A stretch of 64,000 nt of DNA, from the NCBI RefSeq assembly GCF_044336875.1, contig NZ_JBIIOP010000009.1, forward strand, positions 50,325 through 114,324. Reading direction: 5' to 3'. The stretch's first letter is position 1, and each line of letters opens with the position of its first letter. Both the position numbers and the translations under genes were made by a program. Source of the stretch: Brevundimonas sp. Lineage in GTDB: Bacteria; Pseudomonadota; Alphaproteobacteria; Caulobacterales; Caulobacteraceae. Positions 3,608-26,946 of the stretch are shown here, piece after piece. Under the pieces are notes generated by a model. That model did no database searches. It was not told the origin of the DNA and saw nothing but the letters and a program-made list of their open reading frames with translations.

Positions 3608-3608
3608 A

Positions 3609-9035: not shown

Positions 9036-9049
9036 TGGTACCGCTACCG
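9036..9049. promoter_or_regulatory. LacI/XylR-like operator TGGTACCGCTACCG
   Basis: 12/14 to the symmetric TGGTAGCGCTACCA, in the divergent halogenase/TBDR region. An adjacent GAAAAC-A-GTTTTC palindrome lies at 9049-9061. Confidence 0.55.
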
Positions 9050-9188
9050 AAAACAGTTTTCTTTCTATGAAACTTGTTGCATCCTTGAAATCGGGTCAAG
9101 CGGAACGCAGGCCCGATTGTCTTGGGAGAGATGTCGTCCAGCGCGCCTAGAGAGCGCGCGAGGCATCAGAGGGGAAGGGAAGAGACTC

Positions 9189-12074
9189 ATGTCTCGTATC
9201 ACTCGCGCCAACCGCTTCGCACTGCTGTGCGGCGCGTCCGTCCTGTCGTTATCGGCCATGGCCGCACCGTCCCTCGCTTCGGCGCAGGAAACGTCCGCTC
9301 CCGTTCCGGCCAGCGAGGACGACCAGTCCACCGAAGTCGGCGAGGTCGTGGTCACGGGCCTCCGGGCCAGCCTGGCCTCGGCCCAGTCGATCAAGAAGAA
9401 TTCAGAGCAGTTCGTCGATTCCATCACGGCGGTGGATATCGGTCGCCTGCCCGACGTCAATGTCGCCGAGGCGCTGCAGCGCGTCTCGGGGATCCAGATC
9501 ACGCGCAACTATGGCGAAGGCTCCGGCATCGCCATTCGCGGCCTGACCAACGTGCGTTCCGAGCTCAACGGGCGTGACATCTTCAGCGCCAGCGGCGGCC
9601 GCGGCCTGAGCTGGGAAGAGGTCGGCGCTGATCTTCTGGGCGGGGTGGACGTCTACAAGAACCCGTCGGCCGAGATGATCGAAGGCGGCCTGGGCGGCAC
9701 CATCAACCTGAAGACCCGCCTGCCGTTCGATGCGCCGGGTCGCGTCCTGTCGGCCAGCACCGCCTACACCCATTACGATCTGGCCAATGACGACGGCTAC
9801 AACGCCTCCTTCCTGGCCAGCGACCGCTGGCAGACCTCGGCGGGCGAGTTCGGCGCCCTGCTGAACATGTCCTACGGCGAGACCTCGTTCCGCCAGGATC
9901 TCGACGTGGTCGAGCCCTATCTGGTGCGCACCGACGTGCCGGGCTTCGTCGGTCAGGAGATCGCCGTGCCGAACGGCGGCGGGTTCAAGGTCGGCTTCGG
10001 CGACCGCGAACGCTTCAGCGTGGCGACCGCGCTGCAATGGCGCCCGAACGACAAGACCGAATTCTATCTGCAGGCCCTGCGGACGGAATACACCTTCCAC
10101 GACAATGGTCTGTCCTTCTTCGCCTATGGCGGCAACGGCGTGCCGCTGGACCTGGCGCCGGGCGCGGCCTTTACGGTCGAGGACGGTATCGCCACCTCGG
10201 GCTCCTTCATCAATCCGGGCGTGGATGCGGTCACCTTCGCGACGACCCGCGAAACCGAGACGACCGACATCGCCATCGGGGGCAAATGGCGCCCGACCGA
10301 CCGTCTCCAGATCTCCGCCGACCTGCAGTATATCAATTCCAAGGTCGATCAGCAGACGATGAACCTGACGGCCAGCGTCCTGACCAACACCTCGGGACCC
10401 AGCTTCGATGACGACAGCGATCCGCTGACGCCCAATATACCGATGTTCCCGGGCAACTACGTCTTCAACTTCGACACCCGTCCCTCGATCCCTGAGTTCG
10501 GGACGTCGAACGGCTATTACGGCGACCTCGACAACTATGGTCTGACCGCCGTTCTTCCCTATGCCGAGAAGAACGACGCCGAGAGCTGGGCCGGTCGCGC
10601 CGACATGCGTTGGGACTTCGAGGAAGGTGGCTTCTTCAAGGACTTCCGCGCCGGTGTTCGCGTCACGGACCGCACCGCCGTCAACCGGTCGACCACCTAC
10701 GGCACCTGGACCGCGATCGGTACGACCTGCGCCAACTGGTCCAGCCCCGCCGGCTGCTATCGTCTGGCCGACTTCCCTCAGGTCGCCGAGCAGTTTCCGT
10801 TCCGCAACAGCTTCCTGAACGGCGACGGCCAGAACGTCTTCGGCGACGTCTGGATGTTCGGCCTGCGTCAGGTGGGCGATCCGCAGGCGGTGTTCGACTT
10901 CCTGAACGGCGCGCCGTTCAACCAGAATATCGGCTTCCGCTCGTTCGACGATCCGACCGCCCAGATCTCCAACGTGTCGGAGACGACCTATGCCGGCTAC
11001 GGCGTGGTTCGTTTCGCCTCCAACTTCCTGGGCAAAGACTGGGACGGCAACTTCGGCGTCCGCATCGTCAAGACCGAGTCCGCCTCTGACGGTTTCGAGA
11101 CCATCACTTACCGTGATCCGAGCGGCACGAGCGGCACGCCGACCAATCTGACGATCGTCACTCCGATCGTCGGCAACAACAAATACACCGACATTCTTCC
11201 AAGCCTGAACTTGCGGATGTTCCTGTCGCCTGAACTGCAGCTGCGTTTCGCCGCCTCGCAGAACGTGGCCCGTCCGGACTTCGGTCAGCTGAACGCCAGC
11301 TACAGCATCAGCCCGACGTATGCGAACTCGGGCGACATCCTGCCGATTCCGGGGCAGCGCGGAACCGGCACGGCCGTCGGTAATCCGCTGCTGGATCCGC
11401 AGCGCGTTACCGCGCTGGACTTCGCGGTCGAATGGTATTTCTCGCCGGTCGGCTTCGTCTATGCGACGGCTTTCAAGAAGGACATCAAGGACCTGTTCTT
11501 CAACGTCACGGCGGTGGAGAACTACAACCTGCCAGGTCTCGGCACGGTGCCGTTCAACATCACGCGCTTGAAGAACGTGGACGAGGGCACGCTGGAGGGT
11601 TTCGAGGTCGGCGGTCAGCGCTTCTTCGACTTCCTGCCGTCGCCGTTCGACGGTCTGGGCGTCCAGGCCAACTACACCTTCATCGACTCGAACGCGGCGA
11701 CGGTCGCGGCCAACGCCCAGACGGGCGGCTCTGAAATCTCGGTGCCGATCCAGGGGCTGTCGGAGAACAGCTACAACCTCGTGCTGCTGTACGAGAAGTA
11801 CGGCTTCAACGCCCGTCTCGCCTACAACTGGCGCGACGACTTCCTGCAGACCACGACCGGCGTCGGCACCGGCCAGCTGCCGATCTTCGGCAAGGCCTTC
11901 GGCGTTCTGGACGGTTCGATCAGCTACGACTTCAACGAGCGGCTGGCGGTCACCGTGGATGCGCAGAACATCCTGAACCAGGAATCGCAGACCTATCAGA
12001 TCACCGAGGATCGTTATCGCGACTATCAGCTCGATGATCGCCGGTTCAGCATCCGGGTTCGCCTCCGCTACTAG
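9189..12074 (+). CDS. TonB-dependent receptor (Xanthomonas/Caulobacter carbohydrate type)
   Basis: Signal peptide, TonB box EVVVTG, plug motif DIGRLPDVNVAEALQRVSGIQI, C-terminal aromatic strand (RVRLRY). Start moved to ATG 9189 behind GGAAGAG. Confidence 0.95.
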   Translation: MSRITRANRFALLCGASVLSLSAMAAPSLASAQETSAPVPASEDDQSTEVGEVVVTGLRASLASAQSIKKNSEQFVDSITAVDIGRLPDVNVAEALQRVSGIQITRNYGEGSGIAIRGLTNVRSELNGRDIFSASGGRGLSWEEVGADLLGGVDVYKNPSAEMIEGGLGGTINLKTRLPFDAPGRVLSASTAYTHYDLANDDGYNASFLASDRWQTSAGEFGALLNMSYGETSFRQDLDVVEPYLVRTDVPGFVGQEIAVPNGGGFKVGFGDRERFSVATALQWRPNDKTEFYLQALRTEYTFHDNGLSFFAYGGNGVPLDLAPGAAFTVEDGIATSGSFINPGVDAVTFATTRETETTDIAIGGKWRPTDRLQISADLQYINSKVDQQTMNLTASVLTNTSGPSFDDDSDPLTPNIPMFPGNYVFNFDTRPSIPEFGTSNGYYGDLDNYGLTAVLPYAEKNDAESWAGRADMRWDFEEGGFFKDFRAGVRVTDRTAVNRSTTYGTWTAIGTTCANWSSPAGCYRLADFPQVAEQFPFRNSFLNGDGQNVFGDVWMFGLRQVGDPQAVFDFLNGAPFNQNIGFRSFDDPTAQISNVSETTYAGYGVVRFASNFLGKDWDGNFGVRIVKTESASDGFETITYRDPSGTSGTPTNLTIVTPIVGNNKYTDILPSLNLRMFLSPELQLRFAASQNVARPDFGQLNASYSISPTYANSGDILPIPGQRGTGTAVGNPLLDPQRVTALDFAVEWYFSPVGFVYATAFKKDIKDLFFNVTAVENYNLPGLGTVPFNITRLKNVDEGTLEGFEVGGQRFFDFLPSPFDGLGVQANYTFIDSNAATVAANAQTGGSEISVPIQGLSENSYNLVLLYEKYGFNARLAYNWRDDFLQTTTGVGTGQLPIFGKAFGVLDGSISYDFNERLAVTVDAQNILNQESQTYQITEDRYRDYQLDDRRFSIRVRLRY

Positions 12075-12101
12075 GGGCGTACTGTAAGCCTATCGTTTCT
12101 C

Positions 12102-12127
12102 GGGCGTCGCCGTTCGCGGCGGCGCCT
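12102..12127 (+). other. Intercistronic stem-loop after the TBDR
   Basis: GGGCGTCGCCG-TTCG-CGGCGGCGCCT; weak U-tract. Confidence 0.55.
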
Positions 12128-12158
12128 GATTTCGTTTCGTGACTACGGGAGGACGTCC

Positions 12159-13802
12159 ATGATCAGCAACCGCATGTTCAGGACCTGCACGGCGGGGCTC
12201 GCGCTCGCCGCAACCCTGGCGACGGGCGGCGCCTTCGCCGCCGAACCCATTCCCCAGTTCGTCACCCGCGAGGGCCGCCACGCCCTGATGGTCGACGGCG
12301 CGCCCTTCACCATCCTGGGCGGACAGGTCAACAACTCCTCCAACTATCCAGCCCCCCTGGCCCAGGCCTGGCCGGCCCTGCGATACATGGGCGCCAATAC
12401 GGTCCAGATTCCTCTCGGCTGGGAGCAGATCGAGCCGGAGGAGGGGCGTTTCGACTTCTCCTTCGTGGATCACGCCATCGAACAGGCCCGCGCCAACGAC
12501 ATGCGCGTCGTCTTCCTGTGGTTCGCCACCTGGAAGAACACGGCCCCGGCCTACGCCCCCGCTTGGGTCAAGCTGAACCCCGAGCGGTTCCCGCACCTGA
12601 TCGAGAAGGACGGCAAGGAAAGCTACGCCCTGTCGCCTTATGGCGCTGAGACCCTGGCCGCCGACGCCCGCGCCTACGCCGCCCTGATGCGCCACATTCG
12701 CCAGGTGGACGAGCGCCAGCGCACCGTCATCATGATGCAGCCCGAGAACGAGGTCGGCACCTACGGCCCCGTGCGCGACTATTCCCCGGCTGCGCGCGCC
12801 GCCTTCGCCGCCCCCGTGCCTCAGGCCCTGCTGGACCGTACAGGCAAGTCGCCCGGAACCTGGGCCGAGGTGTTCGGCAAGGACGCGGACGAGTTCTTCC
12901 ACGCCTGGTCCATCGGCCATTACGTCGGCACGGTCGCTGCGGCCGGCAAGGCGGAATATCCGCTGCCCATGTACGTCAACGCCGCCCTGCGCGACGCCAT
13001 CAACGACCAGAACCCGGCGACCTACGCCTCGGGCGGCCCGACCTGGAACGTCATCGAGGTATGGCAGGCCGCCGCCCCGTCGATCGACTTCCTGGCGCCC
13101 GACATCTACACGCGCAAGTCGATCGAGTATGAAGCCCACCTGAACCGTTACGGCCGTCCGGACAACGCCCTTTTCGTCGCCGAGACCGGCAGCGACACCC
13201 AATACGCCCGCTATCTGTTCGAGACCCTGGGGCGGGGCGGCATAGGCTTCTCGCCGTTCGGCATCGATTACACCGGCTATTCCAACTATCCGCTGGGGGC
13301 CAAGGCGATCACCGAGGAGACGCTGGTCCCGTTCCGCGACCTGTATCGGCTGATCGCCCCCTGGCAGCGGACCTGGGCCCGCCTGTCCTTCGAGGGCAGG
13401 GTCTGGGGCGCCGCCGAGCCTGACGACCGCAAGCCCGAGGTCATCGACCTGGGCGACTGGACCGCCACCACCGGCTATCAGCGCTGGCAGTTCGGGGCCA
13501 CTTCCATGGCCATCGATCCGAACGACGTCCCGGCCGCCACGGCCCAGCCGAACGGCGCGATCGCCATCGCCGAGATCGAGCCCGGTCAGTTCATCCTCGC
13601 CGGCCACAACATCCGCATCGACTTCGCCGCCAAGCCCGCGACCGACGGCAAGCGCCGCATGGTCCTGCGCATCGAGGAAGGCCATTTCGACCCCGCCGGG
13701 AAATGGGTGTTCGAACGCATCTGGAACGGCGACCAGGTCGACTACGGCCTCAATTTTTCCGACCGACCGCAGCTGCTGCGCGTCGTCACCGCCACCTACT
13801 GA
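12159..13802 (+). CDS. GH35 beta-galactosidase with DUF5597-type C-terminus
   Basis: Sec signal; [22 protein letters not shown] (acid/base), [14 protein letters not shown] (nucleophile). Same type as xyloglucan-locus beta-galactosidases. Confidence 0.85.
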
Positions 13803-13826
13803 CCTGTCTGTAAAGCGAGCGCCCCC

Positions 13827-16763
13827 ATGACCTCGACCCTCGCCCGCCGCCTGATGCTGGCCGCCCTGATGATTGCGCCCCTGAGCGCCTGCGCCGGATC
13901 AGGCCTGATGGACAGCGCCTCCGCCGGCGCTCTCGAACAGGCCGCCTTCGAGCGTATCCCCGCCGGGATCGTCATCGCCCCGACCGAGGGCGCGGCCCGC
14001 CGTGTTCGCCTGGAGGTCTATGGCCCCGAGACCATTCGCGTCACGGCGACCGAAAACGCCGATCTGGAACTGCCGGCCAGCCTTATGGTCACGGCCCAGC
14101 CCTCGACCACGACCCCGTTCGAGGTCGAGACCCGCGGCGAACTGGTCGTGTTGAAGACCGCCGAGGCCACGGCCGAGGTCTCGCGCCGGACCGGCGCCGT
14201 CCGCTTCCTCGACGAGAACGGCCGGGAGGTGCTGAAGGAACGGGCCGGCGTGCGCGAACTCAGCCCCGTCACCGTCGAGGACCAGGCCGGAGATCACCGT
14301 TTCCTGGCCACCCGCCAGGTCTGGGACAGCCCTGCCGACGAGGCCTTCTACGGCCTGGGTCAGCATCAGCAGGGCGTGATGAACTACAAGGGCCGCGACG
14401 TTCAACTGGCCCAGCACAATATGGACGTGGGCGTCCCCTTCGTCGTCTCCAGCCGCAACTACGGCCTGCTGTGGGATAATAACTCGATCACCCGGTTCGG
14501 CGATCCGCGGCCCTATGGCATGATCTCGGACCAGTTCATCGTCCGCGACGCCACCGGCCGCTTCGGTGGTCTGACCGCCAGCTACTATCAGGACGATCAA
14601 CTCAAGGTTCAGCGCCAGGAGACGGAGGTGAACTACGAGTTCATCCGCGAATGGTCGCGCTGGCCCGAAGGCTTCAAGTCGCAACCGGGCCAGCCGGTCC
14701 AGACCGGCGACATGGGCAAGCCGGGCCAGGCGGGCGTCAGGGTCGTCTGGGAAGGCACGCTGGAAACCGCCGAGGCCGGCCTGCACAAGTTCCGCCTCTA
14801 TTCGTCGGGCTACGCCAAGGTCACCATCGACGGCAAGGTGGTCGAACAGAACTGGCGCCAGAACTGGAACGCCTTCGACCATGATTTCCAGGTCGAGATG
14901 GCCGCCGACACGCGCGTGCCGATCAAGATCGAGTGGACGCCGGAGGACGGCTATATCTCGCTGCGCCACATGGATCCGCTGCCGGCCGCAGACCAGGGCG
15001 CATTGAGCCTGGCCTCGGAAGTCGGCACGGCCATCGACTACTACTACGTCGGCGGCGACGACATCGACGGCGTCATCTCCAACTATCGCGGCCTGACCGG
15101 CAAGTCGGTGATGCTGCCCCGCGCCGCCTACGGCTTCTGGCAGAGCCGCCAGCGCTACAACACCCAGGACGAGGTCGTCGACGCCGTGCGCGGCTATCGC
15201 GAGCGCGGCCTGCCGATCGACATGGTGGTGCAGGACTGGTTCTACTGGCCCGAGAACGCCTGGGGCTCGCACCAGTTCGACCCCGCCCGCTATCCGAACC
15301 CGACCCAGATGGTGAAGGACGTTCACGACATGAACGCCAACATCATCATTTCGGTCTGGCCGAAATTCTATCCGACCACCGACCATTACAAGCAGCTGGA
15401 CGCCATTGGCGGCATGTATACGCGCAACGTCGACGTCGGTGCGCGCGACTGGGTCGGCCCCGGTTACGCCAACAGCTTCTACGACCCCTATCTGCCGGCG
15501 GCGCGCGACCTTTACTGGAAGCAGATGTCCGACAGTTTCAAGGGCATGGGCTTCGACGGCTGGTGGCTGGATTCGGTCGAGCCGGACATGCACTCCAACC
15601 TCGACTTCGCCGAACGGACCCTGCGCATGGGCCCGACCGCCAACGGTCCCGGCGCCTATGTGTTCAACTCGTATCCGCTGATGAACGCCGAGAACGTCTA
15701 TCGCCATTTCCGGGCCGAGCATGACGACCAGCGGACCACCATCCTGACCCGCTCCGCCTGGGGCGGTCTGCAGCGCACCGGTTCGGTCCTGTGGTCGGGC
15801 GATGTGGTCGCGCGATGGGACAATCTGCGCGACCAGATCTCGGCCGGCGTCAACGCCGGCCTGTCGGGACTGCCCAACTGGACCCACGACATCGGCGGAT
15901 TCTCGGTTGAGAGCCGTTATTCCAACACCGCCGGCATGAAGCCCGAGGACAAGGCCGAGTGGGACGAGCTGCAGCTGCGCTGGTTCCAGTTCGGGGCCTG
16001 GTCGCCGATCTTCCGTTCCCACGGGGAGTTCCCGCTGAGAGAAGTCTATAATCTGGCCCAGCCCGGCACCGACTACTACGCCGCCTACGCCGAGCAGCTG
16101 CGCACCCGCTACCGGCTGATGCCCTATATCTACAGCCTGGCCGGCGACACCTATCTGCGCGACGGCACCATTATGCGCGGTCTGGTCATGGACTTCCCGT
16201 CCGATCTGAAGGCGCGCGACATCGACGACCAGTACATGTTCGGCCACGCCCTGCTCGTGGCGCCCGTCACCGAGTACAAGGCGCGGGGCCGCTCGGTCTA
16301 TTTCCCGGCCGGGGCCGAATGGTACGACCTGCTGACCGGCCAGAAGTACGCCGGCGGCCGATCGACCACCGTCGCGGCCGCCCTGGGCAAGATCCCGGTC
16401 TTCGTTCGCGCGGGCTCGATCCTGCCGACCGGACCGGCCATCACCTATACGGCCGAGAAGCTGGACGGCCCCTTGACCCTGGTGGTCTATACCGGCGCCG
16501 ACGGGTCGTTCTCGCTCTATGAGGACGAGGGCCGGTCCTACGCCTACGAGCGCGGCGAGTTCTCGACCATCCCGATGCGCTGGAATGACGCGACCGGCGT
16601 CCTGACCATCGGCGCCCGCGCCGGGGCCTATGCGGGCATGCCGATGAACCGCACGATCAATGTGCGCTTCGTCAGCGGACCGGGTGCGGATGTCGGCGAT
16701 TTCGACGCCGCTCCGGCGAAGACGATCCAGTACACGGGCGAGGCCGTCGAGGTCCGCCGTTAG
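13827..16763 (+). CDS. GH31 alpha-xylosidase with PA14 insertion, lipoprotein
   Basis: Lipobox LSAC; WLDSVEPD nucleophile, LWSGD acid/base, WTHDIGGF. PA14-like insert (VVWEGTL...HKFRLYSSGYAKVTIDG) as in Cellvibrio Xyl31A. Confidence 0.92.
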   Translation: MTSTLARRLMLAALMIAPLSACAGSGLMDSASAGALEQAAFERIPAGIVIAPTEGAARRVRLEVYGPETIRVTATENADLELPASLMVTAQPSTTTPFEVETRGELVVLKTAEATAEVSRRTGAVRFLDENGREVLKERAGVRELSPVTVEDQAGDHRFLATRQVWDSPADEAFYGLGQHQQGVMNYKGRDVQLAQHNMDVGVPFVVSSRNYGLLWDNNSITRFGDPRPYGMISDQFIVRDATGRFGGLTASYYQDDQLKVQRQETEVNYEFIREWSRWPEGFKSQPGQPVQTGDMGKPGQAGVRVVWEGTLETAEAGLHKFRLYSSGYAKVTIDGKVVEQNWRQNWNAFDHDFQVEMAADTRVPIKIEWTPEDGYISLRHMDPLPAADQGALSLASEVGTAIDYYYVGGDDIDGVISNYRGLTGKSVMLPRAAYGFWQSRQRYNTQDEVVDAVRGYRERGLPIDMVVQDWFYWPENAWGSHQFDPARYPNPTQMVKDVHDMNANIIISVWPKFYPTTDHYKQLDAIGGMYTRNVDVGARDWVGPGYANSFYDPYLPAARDLYWKQMSDSFKGMGFDGWWLDSVEPDMHSNLDFAERTLRMGPTANGPGAYVFNSYPLMNAENVYRHFRAEHDDQRTTILTRSAWGGLQRTGSVLWSGDVVARWDNLRDQISAGVNAGLSGLPNWTHDIGGFSVESRYSNTAGMKPEDKAEWDELQLRWFQFGAWSPIFRSHGEFPLREVYNLAQPGTDYYAAYAEQLRTRYRLMPYIYSLAGDTYLRDGTIMRGLVMDFPSDLKARDIDDQYMFGHALLVAPVTEYKARGRSVYFPAGAEWYDLLTGQKYAGGRSTTVAAALGKIPVFVRAGSILPTGPAITYTAEKLDGPLTLVVYTGADGSFSLYEDEGRSYAYERGEFSTIPMRWNDATGVLTIGARAGAYAGMPMNRTINVRFVSGPGADVGDFDAAPAKTIQYTGEAVEVRR

Positions 16764-16774
16764 TCGGCCATACG

Positions 16775-16805
16775 CCGCTCATCCCCGCCCATCGGGGATG
16801 AGCGG
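16775..16805 (+). other. Perfect 13-bp intercistronic hairpin
   Basis: CCGCTCATCCCCG-CCCAT-CGGGGATGAGCGG; no U-tract. Confidence 0.7.
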
Positions 16806-16827
16806 GTTCAGATCACAGGAGGCGCGG

Positions 16828-18798
16828 ATGCGCTCGTTGCTGCTCACCGCCGTGGCGGCCGCCGTCCTTGCGACGACGACAGCCGTCCCCGTTCAGGCCC
16901 AGAACACGGAGGTGGTGAACACGGCCGCCGGGCCTCTGCTGGACGCGATGTTCCAGGACCACGCCGTGCTTCAGCGCGATCGGCCGGTGGCCGTGTGGGG
17001 CAGGGCGGCGCCGGGCGCCTCCGTCACCGTTGCGTTCGACCAGGTCCAGGTTCAGGCCGTCGCCGACGCGGACGGGGGCTGGCGCACCCATCTGCCGTCC
17101 CTGCCCGCCGGCGGGCCCCACGTCCTGACCGCCCGCAGCGGCGGCTCCACCCAGACGGTGGCGGACGTCATGGTCGGCGATGTCTGGCTGTGCTCGGGCC
17201 AGTCGAACATGGAGTATCAGCTCCGTCAGGTCACCAACGCCGACATCGAAATCAACAATGCACGCGACGAGGGCCTGCGCCTGTTTCTGGTCGGTCGGTC
17301 CAGCAAGCCGGCCCCGTCGACCTCGACCGCGCCCGTGGGCCAGTGGCGTCTGACCACGCCGGACAGCGCGCGCGACTTCTCCGCCGCCTGCTATTTCATG
17401 GGCCGCGACCTGCGCAAGGCGCAGACCGTTCCGATCGGCCTGATCGCCGCATCCTGGGGCGGATCGATCATCGAGGACTGGCTCAGCCGACAGACCCTGA
17501 CCGATCTGGGCGGCAATCAGCAGGCCCTGGCCGCCCTGGCCGCCTACGCCCGGTCGCCTGAGGACGGCGAGGCGCTCTGGCGCGACATCACCCTGGCCTG
17601 GTGGAAGGACAATGATCCGGGCACGAAACAGGGCTGGAACGGCGAACGGTTCGACGACCGCGCCTGGGCGCCCATCCCGGCGGAGGGAGCCTGGGAAAAC
17701 ACCGTCCCGGCCTTGGCCGGCTTCGACGGCGTGGTGTGGATGCGCAACACGGTCCAGGTGACGGCCGCTCAGGCCCGTCAGCCGGCGACCCTCGAACTCG
17801 GCCCGGTCGACGACGTCGACACCACCTGGGTCAACGGACGCTGGATCGGCGGCGGCCAGGGGTGGGATACGCCCCGCACCTACAGTCTGCCGGCCGGAAC
17901 CTTGACGTCCGGCCGCAACAGCATCGCCGTCGGAGTTCTGGACACCAATGGCGGCGGCGGGGCCTGGGGACCGGCGTCGGCGAAACGGATCGTGTTTGCG
18001 GACGGCTCGACCGTCTCCCTGTCCAGCGGCTGGCGTCACCAGGTTTCGGCCCAGGTCGCGTCCCTGTCCTCCCTGCCGCGAACGCCCTGGATCGGCGGCA
18101 GCGGCATGACCACTCTCTACAATGGCATGATCGTCCCCCTGGGCGCCTACGGCCTGAAGGGCGCCGCCTGGTATCAGGGCGAGTCCAACGCCGGCGACGC
18201 GCCCGGCTATTCGAAACTGTTGCCGGCCTTGTTCGCCGACTGGCGCGCTCGGTTCGAGAACCCGGACCTGGAGATGCTGGTGGTGCAGCTGGCCAACTAC
18301 GGCCCGGCTGTGACCCAGCCGACCGACAGCCTGTGGGCGGCCCTGCGCGAAAGCCAGCGCCGCACCGTCGCCGCCGATCCGCACGCCGGGCTGGCGCTCG
18401 CGATCGACATCGGCGACCGCTACGACATCCATCCGACCAACAAGCAGGAGGTGGGTCGCAGGCTGGCGTTGGAGGCCTTGCGTCTGGCCGGCCTCTCCAC
18501 CGTCTCGTCGCCGCAGCCCGTCGCCATCGAACGCGGCGCCGATGGGGTGCATGTTCGCTATGCCGCCGGGACGGCCCTGAGCCTGTACGGCTTCAACCGC
18601 CCGGTCGGGTTCGAACTGTGCGACGCGGAGGGCGCCTGCCGCTTTGTCGACGCCACCCTGACCGGGGATCAGATCGTGCTGCCGTCCGCCCGGCCGAGCG
18701 ACGTCAAGGTGCGGTTGTGCTGGGCGGAAAGCCCGATCTGCAACCTGTATGGTCCGTCAAACCTGCCGGCGGTTCCGTTCGAGGCGCCGATCGTCTGA
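16828..18798 (+). CDS. Sialate O-acetylesterase-like SGNH esterase (CE20 xyloglucan acetylesterase-like)
   Basis: Sec signal; CSGQSNME catalytic Ser, WYQGESN, DIGDRYDIHP (Asp-His). SGNH domain is split by an inserted domain. Start moved to ATG 16828. Confidence 0.88.
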   Translation: MRSLLLTAVAAAVLATTTAVPVQAQNTEVVNTAAGPLLDAMFQDHAVLQRDRPVAVWGRAAPGASVTVAFDQVQVQAVADADGGWRTHLPSLPAGGPHVLTARSGGSTQTVADVMVGDVWLCSGQSNMEYQLRQVTNADIEINNARDEGLRLFLVGRSSKPAPSTSTAPVGQWRLTTPDSARDFSAACYFMGRDLRKAQTVPIGLIAASWGGSIIEDWLSRQTLTDLGGNQQALAALAAYARSPEDGEALWRDITLAWWKDNDPGTKQGWNGERFDDRAWAPIPAEGAWENTVPALAGFDGVVWMRNTVQVTAAQARQPATLELGPVDDVDTTWVNGRWIGGGQGWDTPRTYSLPAGTLTSGRNSIAVGVLDTNGGGGAWGPASAKRIVFADGSTVSLSSGWRHQVSAQVASLSSLPRTPWIGGSGMTTLYNGMIVPLGAYGLKGAAWYQGESNAGDAPGYSKLLPALFADWRARFENPDLEMLVVQLANYGPAVTQPTDSLWAALRESQRRTVAADPHAGLALAIDIGDRYDIHPTNKQEVGRRLALEALRLAGLSTVSSPQPVAIERGADGVHVRYAAGTALSLYGFNRPVGFELCDAEGACRFVDATLTGDQIVLPSARPSDVKVRLCWAESPICNLYGPSNLPAVPFEAPIV

Positions 18799-18811
18799 AC
18801 GGGGGGCGGGC

Positions 18812-20434
18812 TCAGACGAGCCCCGCGCCTCGCAGCCGCAGCGCCGGGGCGACCGCGACCGGTCGCTCCGCCGGCAGGTCGACGACCAGACCTTCATCGG
18901 TCTGACGGAAGGGCAGGGCGCCGCCGCCCAGCAGTTCGACCGCCGCGACGCGGCCCGCCTGGGGCGTCAGAGCGCGCATCACCATTCGCCCGTCCTCGGG
19001 CCAGTCCAGCGCAAAGGCGTACAGGGCCTGGCCTCTTGTCGTGAAGCGGATGTCCTGGCCGGTCCACGGCCGCGCGGCGCCTTCGCCGTGCATGCCGCCC
19101 ACGACGGTCGTCGGGCCCTCGCCATAGATGCGCCAGGGCCGGGTCTCGAAGATCGCCTCGCCATTGACCTTCATCCAGACGGCGATGTCCGTCAGGATCT
19201 GACGCTCGTCGCTGTCGATGGAGCCGTCGCCCCGCTGCGGGATGTTCAGCATGAGGTTGCCGTTCTTGGACACCACGTCGACCAGGCGCTGGATCACGCT
19301 GTGCGCCGGCACATAATAGTGACTGGTGTAGCGGGCGCGATTGTAGTGCCAGTCGCCGATGCAGGTGTCGGTCTGCCACGGCTCGGGCTTCAGGTTCTCC
19401 GAGAAGCCGCGCTCGACGGTCTCGACGATCCCCTTGCGCTGGCGCTCGTCCAGCCGCTTGCCGTTCACGACCGGCAGTTCGCCCCGCCACTGCAGCGAGG
19501 CGTTGTAATATTCCGCCGTCGCTTCCAGCCCGTAACGCCCCAGAGGCAGCTGGTAGTTGTCGAAATAGACCATGTCCGGCTTGTACTTGGTGATCAGGTC
19601 GCGCTGACGCGCCACCCAGGATCGCACGAAGGCCGGATTGTTCGCCGGCGGCGTCTCGATCCACTGGCCGTCGCGCGCGTCGTGCCAGGCGTTCATCTCG
19701 GCGATCGAGGCGATCCCCTCCGGCGGGGCGAAGGTCGGGCCGGTATAGAGTTCCTGCGGGTCCAGTCCGTCCCACCATTTGCCGGAGCCGTCCGCCTTCG
19801 TCAGGCGCGCGGCGTCATAGCGGACGCTCTTGAGCGGCCCTTCGGCGTCATAGCCATAGGCCGTCTGCCACCAATGCCACGCATGGGCCGCGTGGTTGGA
19901 TACCGCGAACCTCAGGCCCCGCGCGCGCACGGCCTTTTCCCAGGTCCCGACGATGTCGCGTTTCGGCCCGACGCGCATGACGTTCCACGCATGATGGGCG
20001 CTGTCGAACAGGTCCAGATTGTCGTGGTGGTTGGCCATGGACATGATGTAGCGGGCGCCGGCCGCCTGATAGAGGTCCAGCAGTCCCTCGGGATCCCACT
20101 GGTCGGCCTTCCACTGGTCGATGAACTCCATGAACCCGACCTGGCTGGGGTGGCCGTAGGCGGCGACATGGTGTTCGTAGAAGGGGTTGCCCTGGATATA
20201 CATCTGGCGGCCGTACCAGTCGCCGAACTCCGGGACGCACTGGGGGCCCCAGTGGGACCAGATGCCGAACTTGGCGTCGCGGAACCAGTCCGGCGTCCGG
20301 TAGCCGTCGATCAGACTGTCCCAGGTCGGCTTGAACGGCCCTGCCGCCGTTGATCCGCCCGGCGTAGTGGCGCAAGCGCCCAGCATCGAGGCCGAGGCGC
20401 CCGCGCCCAGAAGTCCGCGTCGTGACAGGTTCAT
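18812..20434 (-). CDS. GH29 alpha-L-fucosidase, Tat lipoprotein
   Basis: SRRGLL plus LGAC; WFRDAKFGIWSHWG, HHDNLDLFDS, PDMVYFD (nucleophile), VSKNGNLMLNI. Confidence 0.92.
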   Translation of the reverse strand: MNLSRRGLLGAGASASMLGACATTPGGSTAAGPFKPTWDSLIDGYRTPDWFRDAKFGIWSHWGPQCVPEFGDWYGRQMYIQGNPFYEHHVAAYGHPSQVGFMEFIDQWKADQWDPEGLLDLYQAAGARYIMSMANHHDNLDLFDSAHHAWNVMRVGPKRDIVGTWEKAVRARGLRFAVSNHAAHAWHWWQTAYGYDAEGPLKSVRYDAARLTKADGSGKWWDGLDPQELYTGPTFAPPEGIASIAEMNAWHDARDGQWIETPPANNPAFVRSWVARQRDLITKYKPDMVYFDNYQLPLGRYGLEATAEYYNASLQWRGELPVVNGKRLDERQRKGIVETVERGFSENLKPEPWQTDTCIGDWHYNRARYTSHYYVPAHSVIQRLVDVVSKNGNLMLNIPQRGDGSIDSDERQILTDIAVWMKVNGEAIFETRPWRIYGEGPTTVVGGMHGEGAARPWTGQDIRFTTRGQALYAFALDWPEDGRMVMRALTPQAGRVAAVELLGGGALPFRQTDEGLVVDLPAERPVAVAPALRLRGAGLV

Positions 20435-22704
20435 GCCGGTTCTCCATAGACGACGCCGCGCCCGTCGGTGGCCACATAGACGCGGCCGAAGACGCGGGGA
20501 TCGCCCGCGATGGCGCGATAGCGGCGCCCGTATTCATGCTGGTCGTCGTTGACTCGCGTCCACGACCGGCCGCGATCGTCGGACCGGAAGACGCCCCGCA
20601 GATCGCTCCTGGTTCCTATGGCGAACAGGGCAGGGTAGGTCGAGCCGGCGGGCGGCTTGCCGAAATCCATCATCTCGACGCCGAGCCCGCCGTCCACTTG
20701 CTCGAACCTCTGACCGCCGTCCCGGCTGTTGTAGAGGCCGGATCGCGACACGAACCACAGATCCCCCTCATGCCCCGGCGTGGCCTTCAGCGGAAAGGCC
20801 TGTTCGCGCCAGGTCGGACGGTCAGCAGAGGCGTCGGGCAGGCCATGCGACGGCACGGCGGCGAAGCTGCGCGCGCCGTCCACGCTGACGAACCAGTCGC
20901 CGGTCCTGAAGTCGAGGGCGTAGAACAGGCCTGCGTCCTGCCGATCCGCCACAGGGCGCAGCAGCAGCGGCAGGCCGGCGCAGGGCCGCCAGGTTGCGCC
21001 GCGATCCGTCGACCAGACGTTCTGCGGCGTCGACAGGACGAAGGTCGATCCGTCGGCCGAGACCGTGATCGGCGCGTCCCGGTACAGATCCATGCGAGGA
21101 TTGTCGGCGGGAACCGGGGCGGCGCCCGATGCCGGACGCGGCCGTCCCAGCGGTTTCCAACTGCGGCCCGCATCCTCGGACCAGGCGATGGTCGAGCCGT
21201 CGTGCCCCCCCGAACCGACGCCTTCGTGCGGGGTGCCGCTGCGCACCACCACCGTCGGCGCCCGGCCGGCGTAGTCGATCTGGTTGGTGTTGGCGAAGAC
21301 CGGCGTCGTGAACTGCAGTTGCGGCGACCGGTTCAGGTCCTCGTGCGCGAAGCCGGAGATGTCGCCGAACCCGGTCAGAAGCTCCGGGCCTTCGGGCGGA
21401 CTGACCAGGGTGATGACCGCCGTCTGTTCGATGCCCTCCACCCAGGGCCGCCAGTCTGTCGGCTTGCGGTCGTCGGCGGCCGACAGGTTGCGGGTCTCAT
21501 AGACGGTCGCTCCGGTCGCATAGACCAGTCTGTCGCTGTCGAACGGATCCAGCGCCAGGGCCGCGATCCACCAGCCGAAGTCAGGCCTGTCATTGCCCCA
21601 GTTCAGATAGGGGGTGGCGCTGACGTCGTGCCGTGCGGCCTCGCGCAGGCTCTTCCAGCTTCTTCCGTCGTCGGTGCTGCGCCAGATGGTGTCGCCGGGC
21701 TGCCAGCGGTTCAGGGTCGAGACCATGATGACCCCCGGCCGTTTCCGGTCCAGGGCCACGCCCATGAAGCCGCCTGCCTGTCCGCTGCTCGGTCTGGGAG
21801 GACTGATGTCGCGCCAGTCGCCGGTGTTCGTGTCCAGTCGCCAGACGGCGCCGTCGCCGACGCCGTTCGGGCCGACGCCGAGGGTGCAGGTGACATAGAG
21901 CACGCCCGTGTCGTTCATTTCGGCCTTGGCGGCGGACAGGTCAGCGCGGGGGCCGCCCTCGAGCGCCCGCCAGGTCAGGCCCGCATCGTCGGATCGATAG
22001 AGGACGTGTTCGTGGGGATCGGCGACGCCGACGAACAGGGTCTTCGAACCCTGTCCGCGCGCGCCGCTGCGGGGGTCGAAGATCACGAAGCTGAGGCCGC
22101 CGTGCGTCGTGCGCCCGGTCGGCAGGCCCAGTCCCTTCAGCGGAAAGGTCTCGACCTTGCGCCAGCTCACGCCGCCGTCGATCGAGCGCTGCAGCCCATC
22201 GTGGCGTGACCCGAAATAGAGGATGCGATTGTCATTCGGGTCGATGGCCAGCCGCTCGCCCAGGCCTCGCCCGTCCTCGTTTCCGCCCATGCGAAACGGG
22301 ACGTCGGTGCGGATCCAGGTCCGCCCCCGGTCGTGCGAGCGCAGCATGGCGCCTGGATCGCCGCGGTGAACCCCGACCGCCATATGGACCACCTCGGCGT
22401 CGACCGGATCCGCGGCGATGCTCTCGACGCCGAAATCGCCGGAGCGGGGGCTGGAATCCTGCAGCGGCAGCCAGCGCGCCTGCTCGGGGTCGAACCTATA
22501 GGCGCCGCCCATGTCGGAGCGGGCATAGGCCAGGCCGCGCGCGATGGGACTGAAGACGATCCCTGGAATGAAGCCGCCCGCGCCCACCTTCACATTGCGC
22601 CAGCTGTAGCCCGCCTCGGCGGCGCGCGCCGACCCGGTCATGGCCGCGCCGCCCAGGCCCAGCGCCAGCACGCCCGCCGCGCGTCGGGTCAGTCCTGTCG
22701 TCAT
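20431..22704 (-). CDS. GH74 xyloglucanase
   Basis: TRR signal; GGFIPGIVF, YARSDMGGAYR and GFGDISGF catalytic Asp motifs, GNEDGRGLGERLAIDPN, multiple SxDxGxTW BNR repeats. ATG 22704 has GGGGAG 7 nt upstream. Confidence 0.93.
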   Translation of the reverse strand: MTTGLTRRAAGVLALGLGGAAMTGSARAAEAGYSWRNVKVGAGGFIPGIVFSPIARGLAYARSDMGGAYRFDPEQARWLPLQDSSPRSGDFGVESIAADPVDAEVVHMAVGVHRGDPGAMLRSHDRGRTWIRTDVPFRMGGNEDGRGLGERLAIDPNDNRILYFGSRHDGLQRSIDGGVSWRKVETFPLKGLGLPTGRTTHGGLSFVIFDPRSGARGQGSKTLFVGVADPHEHVLYRSDDAGLTWRALEGGPRADLSAAKAEMNDTGVLYVTCTLGVGPNGVGDGAVWRLDTNTGDWRDISPPRPSSGQAGGFMGVALDRKRPGVIMVSTLNRWQPGDTIWRSTDDGRSWKSLREAARHDVSATPYLNWGNDRPDFGWWIAALALDPFDSDRLVYATGATVYETRNLSAADDRKPTDWRPWVEGIEQTAVITLVSPPEGPELLTGFGDISGFAHEDLNRSPQLQFTTPVFANTNQIDYAGRAPTVVVRSGTPHEGVGSGGHDGSTIAWSEDAGRSWKPLGRPRPASGAAPVPADNPRMDLYRDAPITVSADGSTFVLSTPQNVWSTDRGATWRPCAGLPLLLRPVADRQDAGLFYALDFRTGDWFVSVDGARSFAAVPSHGLPDASADRPTWREQAFPLKATPGHEGDLWFVSRSGLYNSRDGGQRFEQVDGGLGVEMMDFGKPPAGSTYPALFAIGTRSDLRGVFRSDDRGRSWTRVNDDQHEYGRRYRAIAGDPRVFGRVYVATDGRGVVYGEPA

Positions 22705-22749
22705 GCCGCGTCTCCCCATGGCCGTCGGGGCGTCTGCCGGCCCCTTATC

Positions 22750-22763
22750 TGTTAGCGCTACCT
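22750..22763. promoter_or_regulatory. XylR-type operator TGTTAGCGCTACCT
   Basis: 13/14 to the Caulobacter XylR operator TGTTAGCGCTACCA (recalled consensus). Lies between divergent GH74 and GH3. Confidence 0.75.
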
Positions 22764-22990
22764 CATAGCAGGTTGACATCATTGTCATAGGTGCATCAAG
22801 TTGCGCTGGTAAAAATCAACGTCGGCAAACGACGTGTCGGGAGCGAGGCTCGAGTTCACACGGATTTCGCCGCTTCCGGCGCGTTTTGGCGCCTGATCTT
22901 TTGCACCCTGAGCGAACTTCCGGTGCGGTCATCTGGCCGCACCGGCTTTTCGCGCCAAAGTTTCTCGCCCGCCGACTGGACGGACCCGAC

Positions 22991-25543
22991 ATGACCCCGC
23001 GTTTCCTGAACTTCCGCCGCAACGCCGTTTCCGTGATGGCGCTCAGCTTCGCCCTGGCCGCCGGCGCCTGCGCAACCCCGGGTGCGGGTCGTCCGACCCC
23101 CGTCAACTACGTGAAGCCGACCGACACCATCGTGACGGACGCCACCCGCGCCCATCCCGCGCTGTGGCCACATGCCGCATCGCCCGCCGCCATGACCGAC
23201 GCCGCGACGGAAGCCTTCGTCACCGAGCTGATGGGGCGGATGACGCTGGAGGAGAAGGTGGGCCAGACCATCCAGGCCGACATCGCCTCGATCAAGCCGG
23301 AAGATCTGCTGACCTATCCGCTGGGGTCGATTCTGGCGGGAGGGAACTCCTCGCCCGGCGGCGACGAGCGCGCCTCGGCCCGGAAATGGGTCGAACTGGC
23401 CCAGGCCTTCCGCGCCGCCGTGGCCCAGCGCCCGGGCGCCAAAATCCCCATGATCTACGGCATTGACGCCGTCCACGGTCACAACAACATCGTCGGCGCG
23501 ACCATCTTCCCGCACAACAGCGGCCTGGGCGCCGCGCGCGATCCCGACCTGATCCGCCGCATCGGCGAGGCCACCGCCCTGGAAGTCGCAGTCACCGGCG
23601 CCGACTGGACCTTCGGACCCACACTCGCCGTGCCCCAGGACGATCGCTGGGGCCGGGCCTATGAAGGCTATGCCGAGAATCCGGAGGTGGCCCAGAGCTA
23701 CGCCGGCCCCATGACCCTGGGCCTGCAGGGGACGCTGTCGGCCGACCGGCCTCTGGCGCCCGGCCGTATCGCCGGCTCCGCCAAACATTTCCTCGCCGAT
23801 GGCGGCACGACGGGCGGCCATGACCAGGGCGACTTCGCCGGTTCAGAAGAGGAGATGATCCGCACCCATCTGTCCGGCTACCCCCAGGCGATCGATGCAG
23901 GCGTCCTGTCGATCATGGCCAGCTTCTCCAGCTGGAACGGGGTGAAACACTCGGGCAACGAGACCATACTGACCGACGTGCTGCGCGGCCCGCTGGGCTT
24001 CGACGGCTTCGTGGTCTCCGACTGGAACGCCCAGGGCCAGCTGCCCGGCTGCTCCAACGAGAGCTGCGCCCTGGCCTTCAACGCCGGCATCGACATGTTC
24101 ATGGCGCCGGACAGCTGGAAGCCGCTGTATGTGAATACCCTGGCCCAGGTGAAATCGGGCGAGATCCCGATGGCCCGTCTGGACGAGGCGGTGCGACGCA
24201 TCCTGAGGGTCAAGGTCAAGACCGGCCTGTTCGCCGACAGCCGTCCGGTCGAGGGCCATCTGAACGAACTGGGCTCGCCGGCGCACCGCGCCATCGCCCG
24301 CGAGGCGGTGCGGAAATCTCTGGTGCTGCTGAAGAACGAGGGCTCGGTCCTGCCGATCCGCTCCGGCGCCCGCGTGCTGGTCGCCGGCCACGCCGACGAC
24401 ATCGGCCAGGCTTCGGGCGGCTGGACGTTGACGTGGCAGGGCACCGGCAACACCAACGCCGACTTCCCCAACGGACAGTCGATATGGAGCGGCGTCCGCG
24501 AAGCGGTCGCGGCCGGCGGCGGCACGGCGACCCTGAGCCCCGAGGGCGTCTATACGCAGAAGCCGGACGTGGCCATCGTCGTGTTCGGCGAGACGCCCTA
24601 TGCCGAGTTCCAGGGCGACGTGGACACGCTGGACTTCCTGCCGACCGAACCGCTCGAGACGCTGAAACGCCTCAAGGCGGCGGGAATCCCGACCGTCTCG
24701 GTCTTCCTGTCGGGGCGACCGATGTGGACCAATCCCGAGATCAACGCCTCCGACGCCTTCGTCGCCGCCTGGCTGCCGGGCACGGAAGGCGGCGGCGTCG
24801 CTGACGTCCTGATCGGCGACGCGGCGGGCAGGCCTCGCACCGACTTCAACGGCAAGCTGTCGTTCAGCTGGCCCAAGGACGCCAAGGGCGAGCCCCTGAA
24901 CGTCGGCCAGGCCGGCTATGATCCCCAGTTCGCCTACGGCTATGGTCTGACCTATGCGCACGGCGCCCGGGTCGGCCCCCTGTCGGAGGAGAGCGGCGTC
25001 GTGGGCGAGGTCGGCAGCATCGATCGCTACTTCGTCGACGGCCGTTTCGTCGCCCCCTGGTCGTTGATGCTGCGTGACGCTGGCGGCGAGTTCCGCCTGG
25101 GGACTGAGAGCAGCGGCTCCAGCCCCCGCGCGGGCGTGGCCGTGCGGTCGACGGACGGCGCGGGCCAGGAATCGGCGCGCGCCCTGACGTTCGGCGCGGC
25201 CGGCGGCCATGCCCTGATCGTCGCCCGGCCGGTCGATCTGACCCGCCAGGCCAACGGCGAGATGGCGCTGGCCTTCCGTTACCGCCTCGACGCCAGGCCC
25301 GGCGGCGCGGTGATGCTGACACTGGGCGAGGGTCAGGTCGATGTGACCGCCATCTTCAACGCGGCGCCTCTGGGCCAGTGGCGTACGCTGAAGGTGCCGC
25401 TGTCCTGCTTGCGCGACGCCGGCGCCGACCTTTCCGCCGTCGACCAGCCCTGGGGCCTGCGTTCGGCCGGGGGGCTGGGCGTCACGGTCGAGGACATCCG
25501 CCTGGGGTCGGATGAGGGCGATACTGTCTGTCCCGCCGCCTGA
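22991..25543 (+). CDS. GH3 beta-glucosidase/exo-glucanase with C-terminal beta-sandwich, probable lipoprotein
   Basis: AGAC lipobox; DAVHGHNN, KHFLADG, VVSDW (nucleophile), GETPYAE. ExoI/ExoP-like architecture. Confidence 0.92.
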   Translation: MTPRFLNFRRNAVSVMALSFALAAGACATPGAGRPTPVNYVKPTDTIVTDATRAHPALWPHAASPAAMTDAATEAFVTELMGRMTLEEKVGQTIQADIASIKPEDLLTYPLGSILAGGNSSPGGDERASARKWVELAQAFRAAVAQRPGAKIPMIYGIDAVHGHNNIVGATIFPHNSGLGAARDPDLIRRIGEATALEVAVTGADWTFGPTLAVPQDDRWGRAYEGYAENPEVAQSYAGPMTLGLQGTLSADRPLAPGRIAGSAKHFLADGGTTGGHDQGDFAGSEEEMIRTHLSGYPQAIDAGVLSIMASFSSWNGVKHSGNETILTDVLRGPLGFDGFVVSDWNAQGQLPGCSNESCALAFNAGIDMFMAPDSWKPLYVNTLAQVKSGEIPMARLDEAVRRILRVKVKTGLFADSRPVEGHLNELGSPAHRAIAREAVRKSLVLLKNEGSVLPIRSGARVLVAGHADDIGQASGGWTLTWQGTGNTNADFPNGQSIWSGVREAVAAGGGTATLSPEGVYTQKPDVAIVVFGETPYAEFQGDVDTLDFLPTEPLETLKRLKAAGIPTVSVFLSGRPMWTNPEINASDAFVAAWLPGTEGGGVADVLIGDAAGRPRTDFNGKLSFSWPKDAKGEPLNVGQAGYDPQFAYGYGLTYAHGARVGPLSEESGVVGEVGSIDRYFVDGRFVAPWSLMLRDAGGEFRLGTESSGSSPRAGVAVRSTDGAGQESARALTFGAAGGHALIVARPVDLTRQANGEMALAFRYRLDARPGGAVMLTLGEGQVDVTAIFNAAPLGQWRTLKVPLSCLRDAGADLSAVDQPWGLRSAGGLGVTVEDIRLGSDEGDTVCPAA

Positions 25544-25565
25544 CGTCGGGTTGAAGCGAGAGAAG

Positions 25566-26939: not shown

Positions 26940-26946
26940 CCGAGCC

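Follow-up and report, generated by a model that had tools for sequence, protein, structure and literature searches.

We describe here a gene cluster at positions 9189 to 25543 of a 64,000-nucleotide stretch of Brevundimonas sp. DNA (the window; NCBI RefSeq assembly GCF_044336875.1, contig NZ_JBIIOP010000009.1, positions 50,325 to 114,324 of the forward strand), which homology and genomic context identify as probably a TonB-dependent xyloglucan utilisation locus (XyGUL). The cluster holds seven intact genes, encoding a TonB-dependent receptor (TBDR) and proteins of families GH35, GH31 (with a PA14 domain), CE20, GH29, GH74 and GH3, and all seven families match solved, mostly characterised, xyloglucan enzymes in sequence searches of the PDB, with E-values from 1e-88 to 0. 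Catalytic residues or motifs are kept in GH74, GH31, CE20 and GH3, and every enzyme of the locus carries a Sec, twin-arginine (Tat) or lipoprotein export signal, matching the periplasmic cascade demonstrated in Xanthomonas. A preliminary description of the sequence had listed these genes and credited them with every activity needed for acetylated fucogalactoxyloglucan; the genes, their exact end points and the Caulobacteraceae host (genus Brevundimonas) were borne out, and the activities are all encoded at the level of enzyme family. The locus extends a known system by an uncharacterised Brevundimonas example and is not a new kind of system. New here is the XylR-type xyl-box in both divergent promoter regions, position-conserved in relatives.

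The core of the locus is formed by its first three genes. Because the window is GC-rich (0.63-0.71), genes were selected by third-position GC (GC3; 0.84-0.90) and named via Pfam, NCBIfam and PDB sequence searches. The TBDR gene (9189..12074, plus strand), whose ATG at 9189 is read straight from the sequence, encodes a predicted outer-membrane importer of xyloglucan oligosaccharides with a Sec signal and the Pfam domains Plug and TonB_dep_Rec_b-barrel; the protein belongs to NCBIfam TIGR01782 'TonB-Xanth-Caul' (666 bits) and is 41% identical to the Xanthomonas TonB-dependent transporter (TBDT) whose gene adjoins GH74. It is followed by a GH35 beta-galactosidase of the GalD/Bgl35A type (12159..13802, plus; Sec signal), which has Pfam GH42 and GH35 domains with a C-terminal DUF5597 and matches Caulobacter CC0788 (3u7v, 6e-213), XacGalD (7kmn, 2e-186) and CjBgl35A (4d1i, 4e-180). 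The third gene (13827..16763, plus) encodes a GH31 alpha-xylosidase with Pfam GH31 domains, an inserted PA14 domain (26.1 bits against a Pfam cut-off of 24 bits) and a lipoprotein signal (LSAC), and its PDB matches, CjXyl31A (2xvg) and XacXyl31 (7kmp), both have E=0. In this enzyme the catalytic Asp residues in WWLD582 and WSGD659 are invariant, as are W347, W471 and W542 of the -1 and +2 subsites; D582, D659, W347, W471 and W542 are the counterparts of XacXyl31 D564, D640, W328, W453 and W524. GH35 and GH31 share 52-58% identity with orthologues of xyloglucan enzymes that have been characterised.

Three further genes would supply the deacetylating, endo-acting and glucose-releasing activities. 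The CE20 O-acetylesterase (SASA; 16828..18798, plus; Sec signal) lies in an open reading frame (ORF) that is open from 16660, the likely start at 16828 being that of the signal peptide, and matches the founding member of its family, XacXaeA (7kmm), at 1.3e-110. The hallmarks of CE20 in the literature are a block I serine in GQSNM, a block V DxH motif and an SGNH domain that an ancillary beta-sandwich interrupts, and the Brevundimonas protein has GQSNM with S126, DIH (D541-I-H543) and, by Pfam, a SASA/SGNH domain split into two stretches by a GH2_N-like beta-sandwich insert. The GH74 endo-xyloglucanase (20431..22704, minus; Tat signal; database product of 757 aa) was named from its PDB matches to CtXgh74A of Clostridium thermocellum (2cn2, 2e-157), CjGly74A (5fkr, 2.5e-135) and the Xac enzyme (7kn8, 5e-127). 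Its D64 and D448 align with CtXgh74A D70 and D480, so that both catalytic Asp residues are kept; the position of D70 was fixed by comparing the wild-type entry 2cn2 with the D70A mutant entry 2cn3. The last gene, a GH3 exo-beta-glucosidase of the ExoP type (22991..25543, plus; ORF from 22886, likely start 22991), has the Pfam GH3 N- and C-terminal domains and Exop_C, its nearest structure is the ExoP exo-glucanase 3usz (6e-213), and the last base of its stop codon is 25543.

The linkage of GH3 to GH31 is a feature that recurs. ExoP-type GH3 proteins, 54-58% identical to that of the window, lie within equivalent loci of Steroidobacter-like gammaproteobacteria, sphingomonads, Hydrogenophaga and Alsobacter. 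In a gammaproteobacterial metagenome-assembled genome (MAG) the two enzymes are fused in a single ORF of 1796 aa (related locus L028, 9866-15256), the halves being 53% (GH31) and 56% (GH3) identical to the separate window genes, and the same GH31-GH3 fusion is found in a partial database protein from Steroidobacteraceae (P0238, 1552 aa). In Xanthomonas and Cellvibrio, alpha-xylosidase and beta-glucosidase have been shown to act in turn, the glucosidases being encoded at other sites of the genome, and the linkage and fusion seen here fit such alternation.

Besides GH3, the fucosidase is the second component in which the locus departs from its reference counterparts. The gene at 18812..20434 (minus) encodes a GH29 alpha-L-fucosidase or alpha-L-galactosidase with a Tat-like signal and a lipobox (LGAC); Pfam finds Alpha_L_fucos (PF01120; 1.6e-87, 294.6 bits, model positions 9-345 of 345) and Fucosidase_C (PF16757), and the PDB matches are 7snk and 7ljj (1e-87 to 1e-88) and Fusarium FgFCO1 (4ni3, 2.5e-54). 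Neither the 64-kb window nor the alphaproteobacterial loci gave a tblastn match to two GH95 proteins (those of L064 and L028), and in the predicted pathway GH29 would occupy the role of the GH95 alpha-1,2-L-fucosidase. Defucosylation of xyloglucan by this family is not unprecedented, as Fusarium FgFCO1 and several metagenomic bacterial GH29-A (Mfuc) enzymes release fucose from it. To offset the bias of sampling anchored on GH31, four extra neighbourhoods were anchored on GH29 homologues (59-73% identical), and all four have GH35, GH31, CE20, GH3 or GH74 partners.

The genes fall into four transcription units, arranged in pairs about two divergent promoter regions (8971-9188 and 22705-22990). 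The stop codon of GH74 overlaps the start of GH29 by 4 nt, so that these two genes make up a minus-strand operon. The same 4-nt overlap joins the stop of a halogenase-like gene, divergent from the TBDR, to the start of a GH97 gene, and the remaining gaps between co-oriented genes are 22-84 nt. While the interval 9189-25543 given in the preliminary description does contain the seven genes, the transcription units exceed it, leftward through the halogenase-like gene to GH97 and rightward to a GH5 gene. Sec signals are present on the TBDR, GH35, CE20 and GH97, lipoboxes on GH31, GH29 and, probably, GH3, and twin-arginine signals on GH74, GH29 (where the Tat-like signal accompanies the lipobox) and GH5. 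No SusD-like domain occurs among the Pfam results for the locus genes, and there is thus no SusC/SusD pair of the kind found in a Bacteroidota-type polysaccharide utilisation locus. A scan of 7500-27450 for the sigma-70 consensus, which is uninformative for a Caulobacterales genome, returned no promoter. Between the TBDR stop and the GH35 start lies a strong 13-bp GC-rich hairpin followed by a T-rich tract (12100-12129), which may limit how far transcription of the receptor gene continues into the enzyme genes.

Each divergent promoter region contains a candidate operator. The published xyl-box of Xanthomonas and Caulobacter, TGGTAGCGCTAACA, is a 14-bp palindromic operator, and both XylR and the xyl-box are established for C. 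crescentus (PMC10380989). In the window, xyl-box 1 (TGGTACCGCTACCG, 9036..9049) lies between the halogenase-like gene and the TBDR, and xyl-box 2 (TGTTAGCGCTACCT, 22750..22763) between GH74 and GH3; both are 14-bp palindromes, the first agreeing with the perfect palindrome at 12 of 14 bases and the second, on the other strand, with the published box at 13 of 14. Sites with at most two mismatches to the perfect palindrome number exactly 2 in the 64 kb, against 0.07 expected, one per divergent promoter region. The 1.54 Mb of 80 related loci contain 49 such sites, where about 5 would be expected by chance (estimated from 862 variants in 4^14), and most of them, among them those at the two corresponding positions in Brevundimonas and L082, fall within a few hundred bases of a TBDR, GH35, GH31, GH74 or GH3 start. 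The position of xyl-box 1 is kept in nine Brevundimonas loci and in six from Caulobacter or Caulobacteraceae, and that of xyl-box 2 in L002, L003, L004, L007, L011, L028 and L082. We therefore infer from these predicted operators that the locus would belong to a XylR-type xylose regulon, and xylose is predicted to induce it. No xyl-box was found in the Xanthomonas loci among the 80 scanned, in line with the published statement that XylR does not regulate the xyloglucan operon of Xanthomonas (PMC10380989).

Taken together, the gene content suggests a pathway in which the Tat-exported GH74 would cleave the backbone of xyloglucan, a polymer of plant cell walls, to oligosaccharides, which the TBDR would then take into the periplasm. 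There, CE20 would strip O-acetyl groups, GH29 would take off terminal alpha-1,2-L-fucose, or L-galactose, and GH35 would take off beta-galactose, after which GH31 and the ExoP-type GH3 would alternate from the non-reducing end to release xylose and glucose. The monosaccharides would traverse the inner membrane, possibly via a neighbouring SSF symporter. A LacI-family XylR is expected to repress the locus until xylose, itself a product of the pathway, switches it on.

Of the two closest characterised systems, one is the XyGUL of Xanthomonas citri, XAC1768-1774 (Vieira et al., 2021; PMC8245568), which likewise combines TBDT uptake, GH74, a CE20 acetylesterase, a GalD-type GH35 and a GH31-PA14 in a periplasmic cascade, with sugar-catabolism and transporter genes adjoining. 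Identities to the window are 53-54% for GH35, 52-53% for GH31 and 41% for the TBDT, but only 37-39% for GH74 and CE20. The two loci differ in that Xanthomonas has a GH95 fucosidase in place of GH29, two TBDTs in place of one, no beta-glucosidase and no xyl-box, whereas an ExoP-type GH3 is linked in Brevundimonas. The Xanthomonadales gene order, TBDT-GH74-CE20-GH35-GH31-GH95 in the mapped loci as in the publication, also differs, as do the adjacent catabolic genes, which are a xylose isomerase and an MFS transporter in Xanthomonas and an SDR, an IlvD-type dehydratase and an SSF symporter in Brevundimonas. The other, the Cellvibrio japonicus locus, CJA_2706-2710 (Larsbrink et al., 2014; PMC4285296), shares the core of Xyl31A (GH31-PA14), Bgl35A (GH35) and a TBDT, to which the window GH31 and GH35 are matched in the PDB at E=0 and 4e-180, but it has GH95, lacks a linked endo-xyloglucanase (GH74) or esterase and, as read from its published composition, has no linked GH3. 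The preliminary description was thus right that the TBDR-GH35-GH31 core is common to Xanthomonas and Cellvibrio, and went too far in ascribing the whole set to them; its label of a Xanthomonas/Cellvibrio type holds for that core but not for GH29 in place of GH95, the linked GH3, the xyl-boxes or a GH74 and CE20 of 37-39% identity.

Other parts of the arrangement have counterparts elsewhere. In Thermotoga maritima (TM_0305-0310; PMC12144081), GH74 directly adjoins a GH29 fucosidase and is accompanied by a GH31 alpha-xylosidase, as in Brevundimonas; unlike Brevundimonas, this organism is not a Gram-negative proteobacterium, and its locus has no TBDR, GH42 in place of GH35, intracellular exo-enzymes and no esterase. 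Nearer to home, the CC0788 locus of Caulobacter crescentus/vibrioides shares the TBDR-halogenase-GH35-GH31 core, with a GH35 56-58% identical and xyl-boxes upstream of both TBDR and GH35. The C. vibrioides locus stops after GH31, with no GH74, CE20, GH29 or GH3 nearby, and in C. segnis CE20-GH3-GH29 form a separate locus. The preliminary description knew of no characterised Caulobacteraceae example, and the literature yielded none beyond the unannotated crystal structure of CC0788 (3U7V). XyGUL-like loci have been predicted in Alphaproteobacteria in the NetSyn preprint of 2026 (10.1101/2023.02.15.528638), with GH29 in place of GH95 in two of them; its main text names no Brevundimonas or Caulobacter locus, its GH74-containing loci are from Xanthomonas, Massilia, Pseudoxanthomonas and Pseudoduganella only, and it does not mention xyl-boxes, GH3, GH97 or GH5.

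The locus is conserved well beyond this strain. When the window proteins were mapped onto the 80 related loci, which were anchored on GH31, the order TBDR-GH35-GH31-CE20, opposite-strand GH29 and GH74, then GH3 recurred in L082 and in the majority of the Brevundimonas loci retrieved (L001-L004, L006-L009, L011). The best homologues of GH74, GH31 and GH29 are from Brevundimonas (Caulobacteraceae), and the nearest genomes are those of Brevundimonas sp. TWP1-3 and B. vesicularis, with GH31 88-89% identical. Caulobacter loci of the GH31-anchored set have TBDR-halogenase-GH35-GH31 only. The novelty of the locus had therefore been overstated, given its conservation across Brevundimonas and the in silico prediction of alphaproteobacterial XyGULs with GH29 for GH95. 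Within the genus, the CE20 of the window is only about 70% identical to those of the three closest relatives, whereas genes next to it there are 84-92% identical, and the GH35 of L001 is 71% identical to that of the window, against 90-91% for L002 and L008. These uneven identities point to a locus made mosaic by recombination among members of the genus.

Several observations weigh against the assignment to xyloglucan, or against parts of it. The bit scores of CE20 are nearly equal for XacXaeA (374) and for the xylan-associated Fl8 (351) and Pp (344) enzymes, and genomic context only would point to a specificity for acetylated xyloglucan. The top two structural relatives of GH29 are alpha-L-galactosidases from the porphyran system of Phocaeicola plebeius, so that its linkage and sugar preference (fucose or L-galactose) are drawn from context only. 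GH74 has a Tat signal but no lipobox, carbohydrate-binding module (CBM) or evident secretion tag, so that its attack on extracellular polymer is only predicted. GH97, of alpha-galactosidase type, and GH5, which resembles the exo-mannosidase Man5A, fit no known xyloglucan linkage. On the regulatory side, xyl-box 1 agrees with the published box at 11 of 14 bases, leaving 3 mismatches, and no xylR was identified in the window, where the sole LacI gene (40609-41658) lies in a hexuronate cluster. A literature search found no experimental xyloglucan work on Caulobacter or Brevundimonas, nor on any alphaproteobacterial member, and one consortium study merely speculates on GH74 expression by Brevundimonas. 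The locus genes are covered by contigs, 88-92% identical, from metatranscriptomes of leaf litter, soil and wastewater, but these contigs derive from relatives and may include DNA. None of the RNA runs contained the window itself, the best sharing 5-12% of its words and yielding the contigs of relatives; homologues thus appear to be transcribed in these three environments, which is weak expression support for the locus, and the window DNA itself is present in lake-water metagenomes.

The accessory genes raise the question of whether the cluster might be a composite hemicellulose-oligosaccharide locus, serving xyloglucan and also acetylated galacto(gluco)mannan oligosaccharides through GH97 as alpha-galactosidase, GH5 as beta-mannosidase, GH3 as beta-glucosidase and an esterase, with CE20 and GH3 shared between the two. 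This would be compatible with a xyloglucan locus, and we regard it as possible but rather unlikely. The best matches of GH97 and GH5 are a retaining alpha-galactosidase and an exo-mannosidase, both genes are in operons with predicted xyl-box control, GH5 recurs in L081 with CE20-GH3-GH29 and in L045, L076 and L020 with GH31, and GH97 is coupled to GH29 in L084 and adjoins it in L019. Yet there is no endo-mannanase in the locus, GH97 and GH5 are both missing from several otherwise identical Brevundimonas loci, and the recurrent partners GH29 and GH35 have no part in mannan breakdown. A comparable, again minor, chance attaches to the view that the bacterium only scavenges, a periplasmic GH74 trimming imported fragments released by others while the polymer is not attacked. 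The missing lipobox, CBM and secretion tag of GH74 would be expected then, and the retention of only TBDR-halogenase-GH35-GH31 in Caulobacter vibrioides indicates that a scavenging-only configuration exists in the family; most characterised GH74 enzymes, however, work on polymer, and type II systems can secrete Tat substrates further.

It is less likely still that GH29 targets another L-fucosylated or L-galactosylated glycan and that the locus handles non-fucosylated xyloglucan only. Its closest solved relatives in the porphyran system, and the fact that the family also includes alpha-L-glucosidases, would allow this, but GH29 is translationally coupled to GH74 and is found together with GH35 and GH31 in 12 or more loci, which represent several alphaproteobacterial genera, and these loci have no GH95 as a substitute. 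L-galactose, moreover, is itself a constituent of some xyloglucans. As for the origin of the xyloglucan locus, the preliminary description had proposed phylogenies to assess transfer from gammaproteobacteria, and a recent acquisition from a Xanthomonas-like or Cellvibrio-like donor now appears very improbable. The shared CAZy families and the TonB-Xanth-Caul receptor subfamily speak for it, but GC is flat across the locus (0.63-0.70) and the same as in the flanks, and neighbour-joining trees of GH31, GH35 and CE20 put Brevundimonas in its own deep clade, not nested in the Xanthomonadales; on these grounds the transfer was rejected. In the GH74 tree, also neighbour-joining, the Brevundimonas sequences cluster, which is shown for that part alone. 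Identity to the Xanthomonas proteins is moreover only 37-54%, GH74 and CE20 being at 37-39% to Xanthomonas but about 51% to sphingomonad and Steroidobacter-like versions, and gene order, fucosidase family and regulation all differ. The recurrence of the gene order across most Brevundimonas loci argues for a genus trait.

It is tempting to speculate, although we hold this to be somewhat less than an even chance, that a distinct alphaproteobacterial XyGUL lineage is common to Brevundimonas, sphingomonads, Alsobacter and some Caulobacter. In such a lineage, a dedicated GH29 clade would have replaced GH95 as the xyloglucan alpha-1,2-fucosidase or alpha-L-galactosidase, GH31 would be obligately partnered by the ExoP-type GH3, the two being fused in some lineages, and the whole system would be in the XylR regulon, with xylose and not an oligosaccharide as the signal. 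GH97 and GH5 would perhaps act on a xyloglucan side chain or co-extracted hemicellulose not yet assigned to these families.

Fresh water, soil, plant litter and the rhizosphere are common habitats of Brevundimonas, and xyloglucan is secreted by roots. A complete, genus-conserved xyloglucan system, if true, would define a plant-polymer niche for these oligotrophs. The locus also provides a bacterial GH29 candidate for xyloglucan defucosylation, an activity known from few GH29 enzymes, offers enzymology a natural pairing of GH31 and GH3, and sets predicted xylose/XylR control in Brevundimonas against a Xanthomonas XyGUL without a xyl-box. The concept of xyloglucan use by Gram-negative bacteria is unchanged by it. 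The variant features (GH29, the linked GH3, predicted xyl-box control and GH97/GH5) are worth biochemistry, and would not surprise a specialist.

The halogenase-like partner of the TBDR (7438..8970, minus) is a tryptophan-halogenase-like flavoprotein (Pfam Trp_halogenase, 4.9e-198). Brevundimonas, Caulobacter, sphingomonads, Alsobacter, Hydrogenophaga and Steroidobacteraceae have such a gene adjoining the TBDR in loci of this type. Among Brevundimonas loci that are otherwise syntenic, this slot is taken by either of two TBDR and halogenase pairs, which are not orthologous (one in L001, L002, L007, L009 and L011, the other in L008). The window and L008 are of one type, with 82% and 92% identity for receptor and halogenase, while the pair of B. 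vesicularis and others is 35-36% and 59% identical to that of the window. A xyl-box precedes both types, and the presence of two types at one slot looks like cassette replacement by recombination.

GH97 and the Man5A-like GH5 are strain-variable accessories that share the operons of the locus. The GH97 protein (5459..7441, minus; Sec signal) is of the retaining alpha-galactosidase type, with Pfam N-terminal, catalytic and C-terminal domains, and its best match is BtGH97b (3a24, 8e-108). Among Brevundimonas loci, related genes were found in L006, L008 and L011 only. On a metagenomic contig (L084, 8043-11629), GH97 and GH29 are translationally coupled by a 4-nt overlap beside GH35, and in an Alsobacter MAG (L019, 15759-19455) GH97 adjoins GH29; from this pairing, GH97 tracks GH29/GH35 and not mannan genes. 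The GH5 gene (25566..26939, plus; 457 aa; Tat signal) begins 22 nt after GH3. Its ORF (475 aa) has no match in the Pfam and NCBIfam copies searched, and it was the PDB search that identified it as resembling the exo-mannosidase Man5A of Cellvibrio mixtus (1uuq, 1.6e-110), with the motifs NEP and EEFG present. It was not detected after GH3 in L001, L004, L007 or L009. Man5A-like GH5 proteins, 53-60% identical, occur in L081 (1948-11590), L045 (12875-14092), L020 (16195-17400) and L076 (6005-7246). In the first of these, from Caulobacter segnis, GH5 accompanies COesterase-CE20-GH3-GH29, and in L045 (Sphingomonas daechungensis), L076 and L020, an Allosphingosinicella MAG being among them, it lies beside or near GH31.

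To the left of GH97 lies a set of sugar genes named by Pfam, which may handle released sugars: an SSF symporter (174-1820, minus), an IclR regulator (1940-2713, plus), an SDR sugar 1-dehydrogenase (2801-3607, plus) and an IlvD/EDD aldonate dehydratase (3552-5411, plus; also from PDB matches). In relatives, too, SSF and IlvD genes adjoin the locus, and the window scan placed no xyl-box before the genes at 174-5411. An assignment of the SDR and IlvD genes to xylose oxidation was considered and set aside, as the SDR scores 316 bits against an XylB-like NCBIfam cut-off of 400, and the dehydratase is nearer to the 'galactonate dehydratase' 7m3k (1081 bits) than to Caulobacter XylD (5oyn, 806 bits).

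On the other side, a large pectin/hexuronate utilisation cluster (27440-51452) directly follows the xyloglucan locus, so that the window is better seen as a plant-cell-wall island than as a lone xyloglucan locus. It comprises UxaC, a mannitol-dehydrogenase-family gene (UxaB-like), UxaA, a TBDR, a Pec_lyase-family protein, KdgK, KduD, KduI, an RpiB-like gene, a LacI regulator, an FAH-family protein, an MFS transporter, a GH43, two carboxylesterases and a second TBDR. That LacI gene (40609-41658) was considered as XylR and left unassigned, given its position among the hexuronate genes and an identity of only 40% to the LacI beside GH35 in L083. Between GH5 and uxaC, an ORF on the minus strand (26947-27531) has a GNAT acetyltransferase domain (PF14542, 4e-21); it failed the GC3 filter and is only putatively coding. 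Further to the right, at 53150-63972, are genes unrelated to the locus, namely a cytochrome bo3-type quinol oxidase operon (subunits II, I, III and IV) with SURF1, a histidine kinase with a Fis-type response regulator, a SpoU methylase and an outer-membrane efflux protein.

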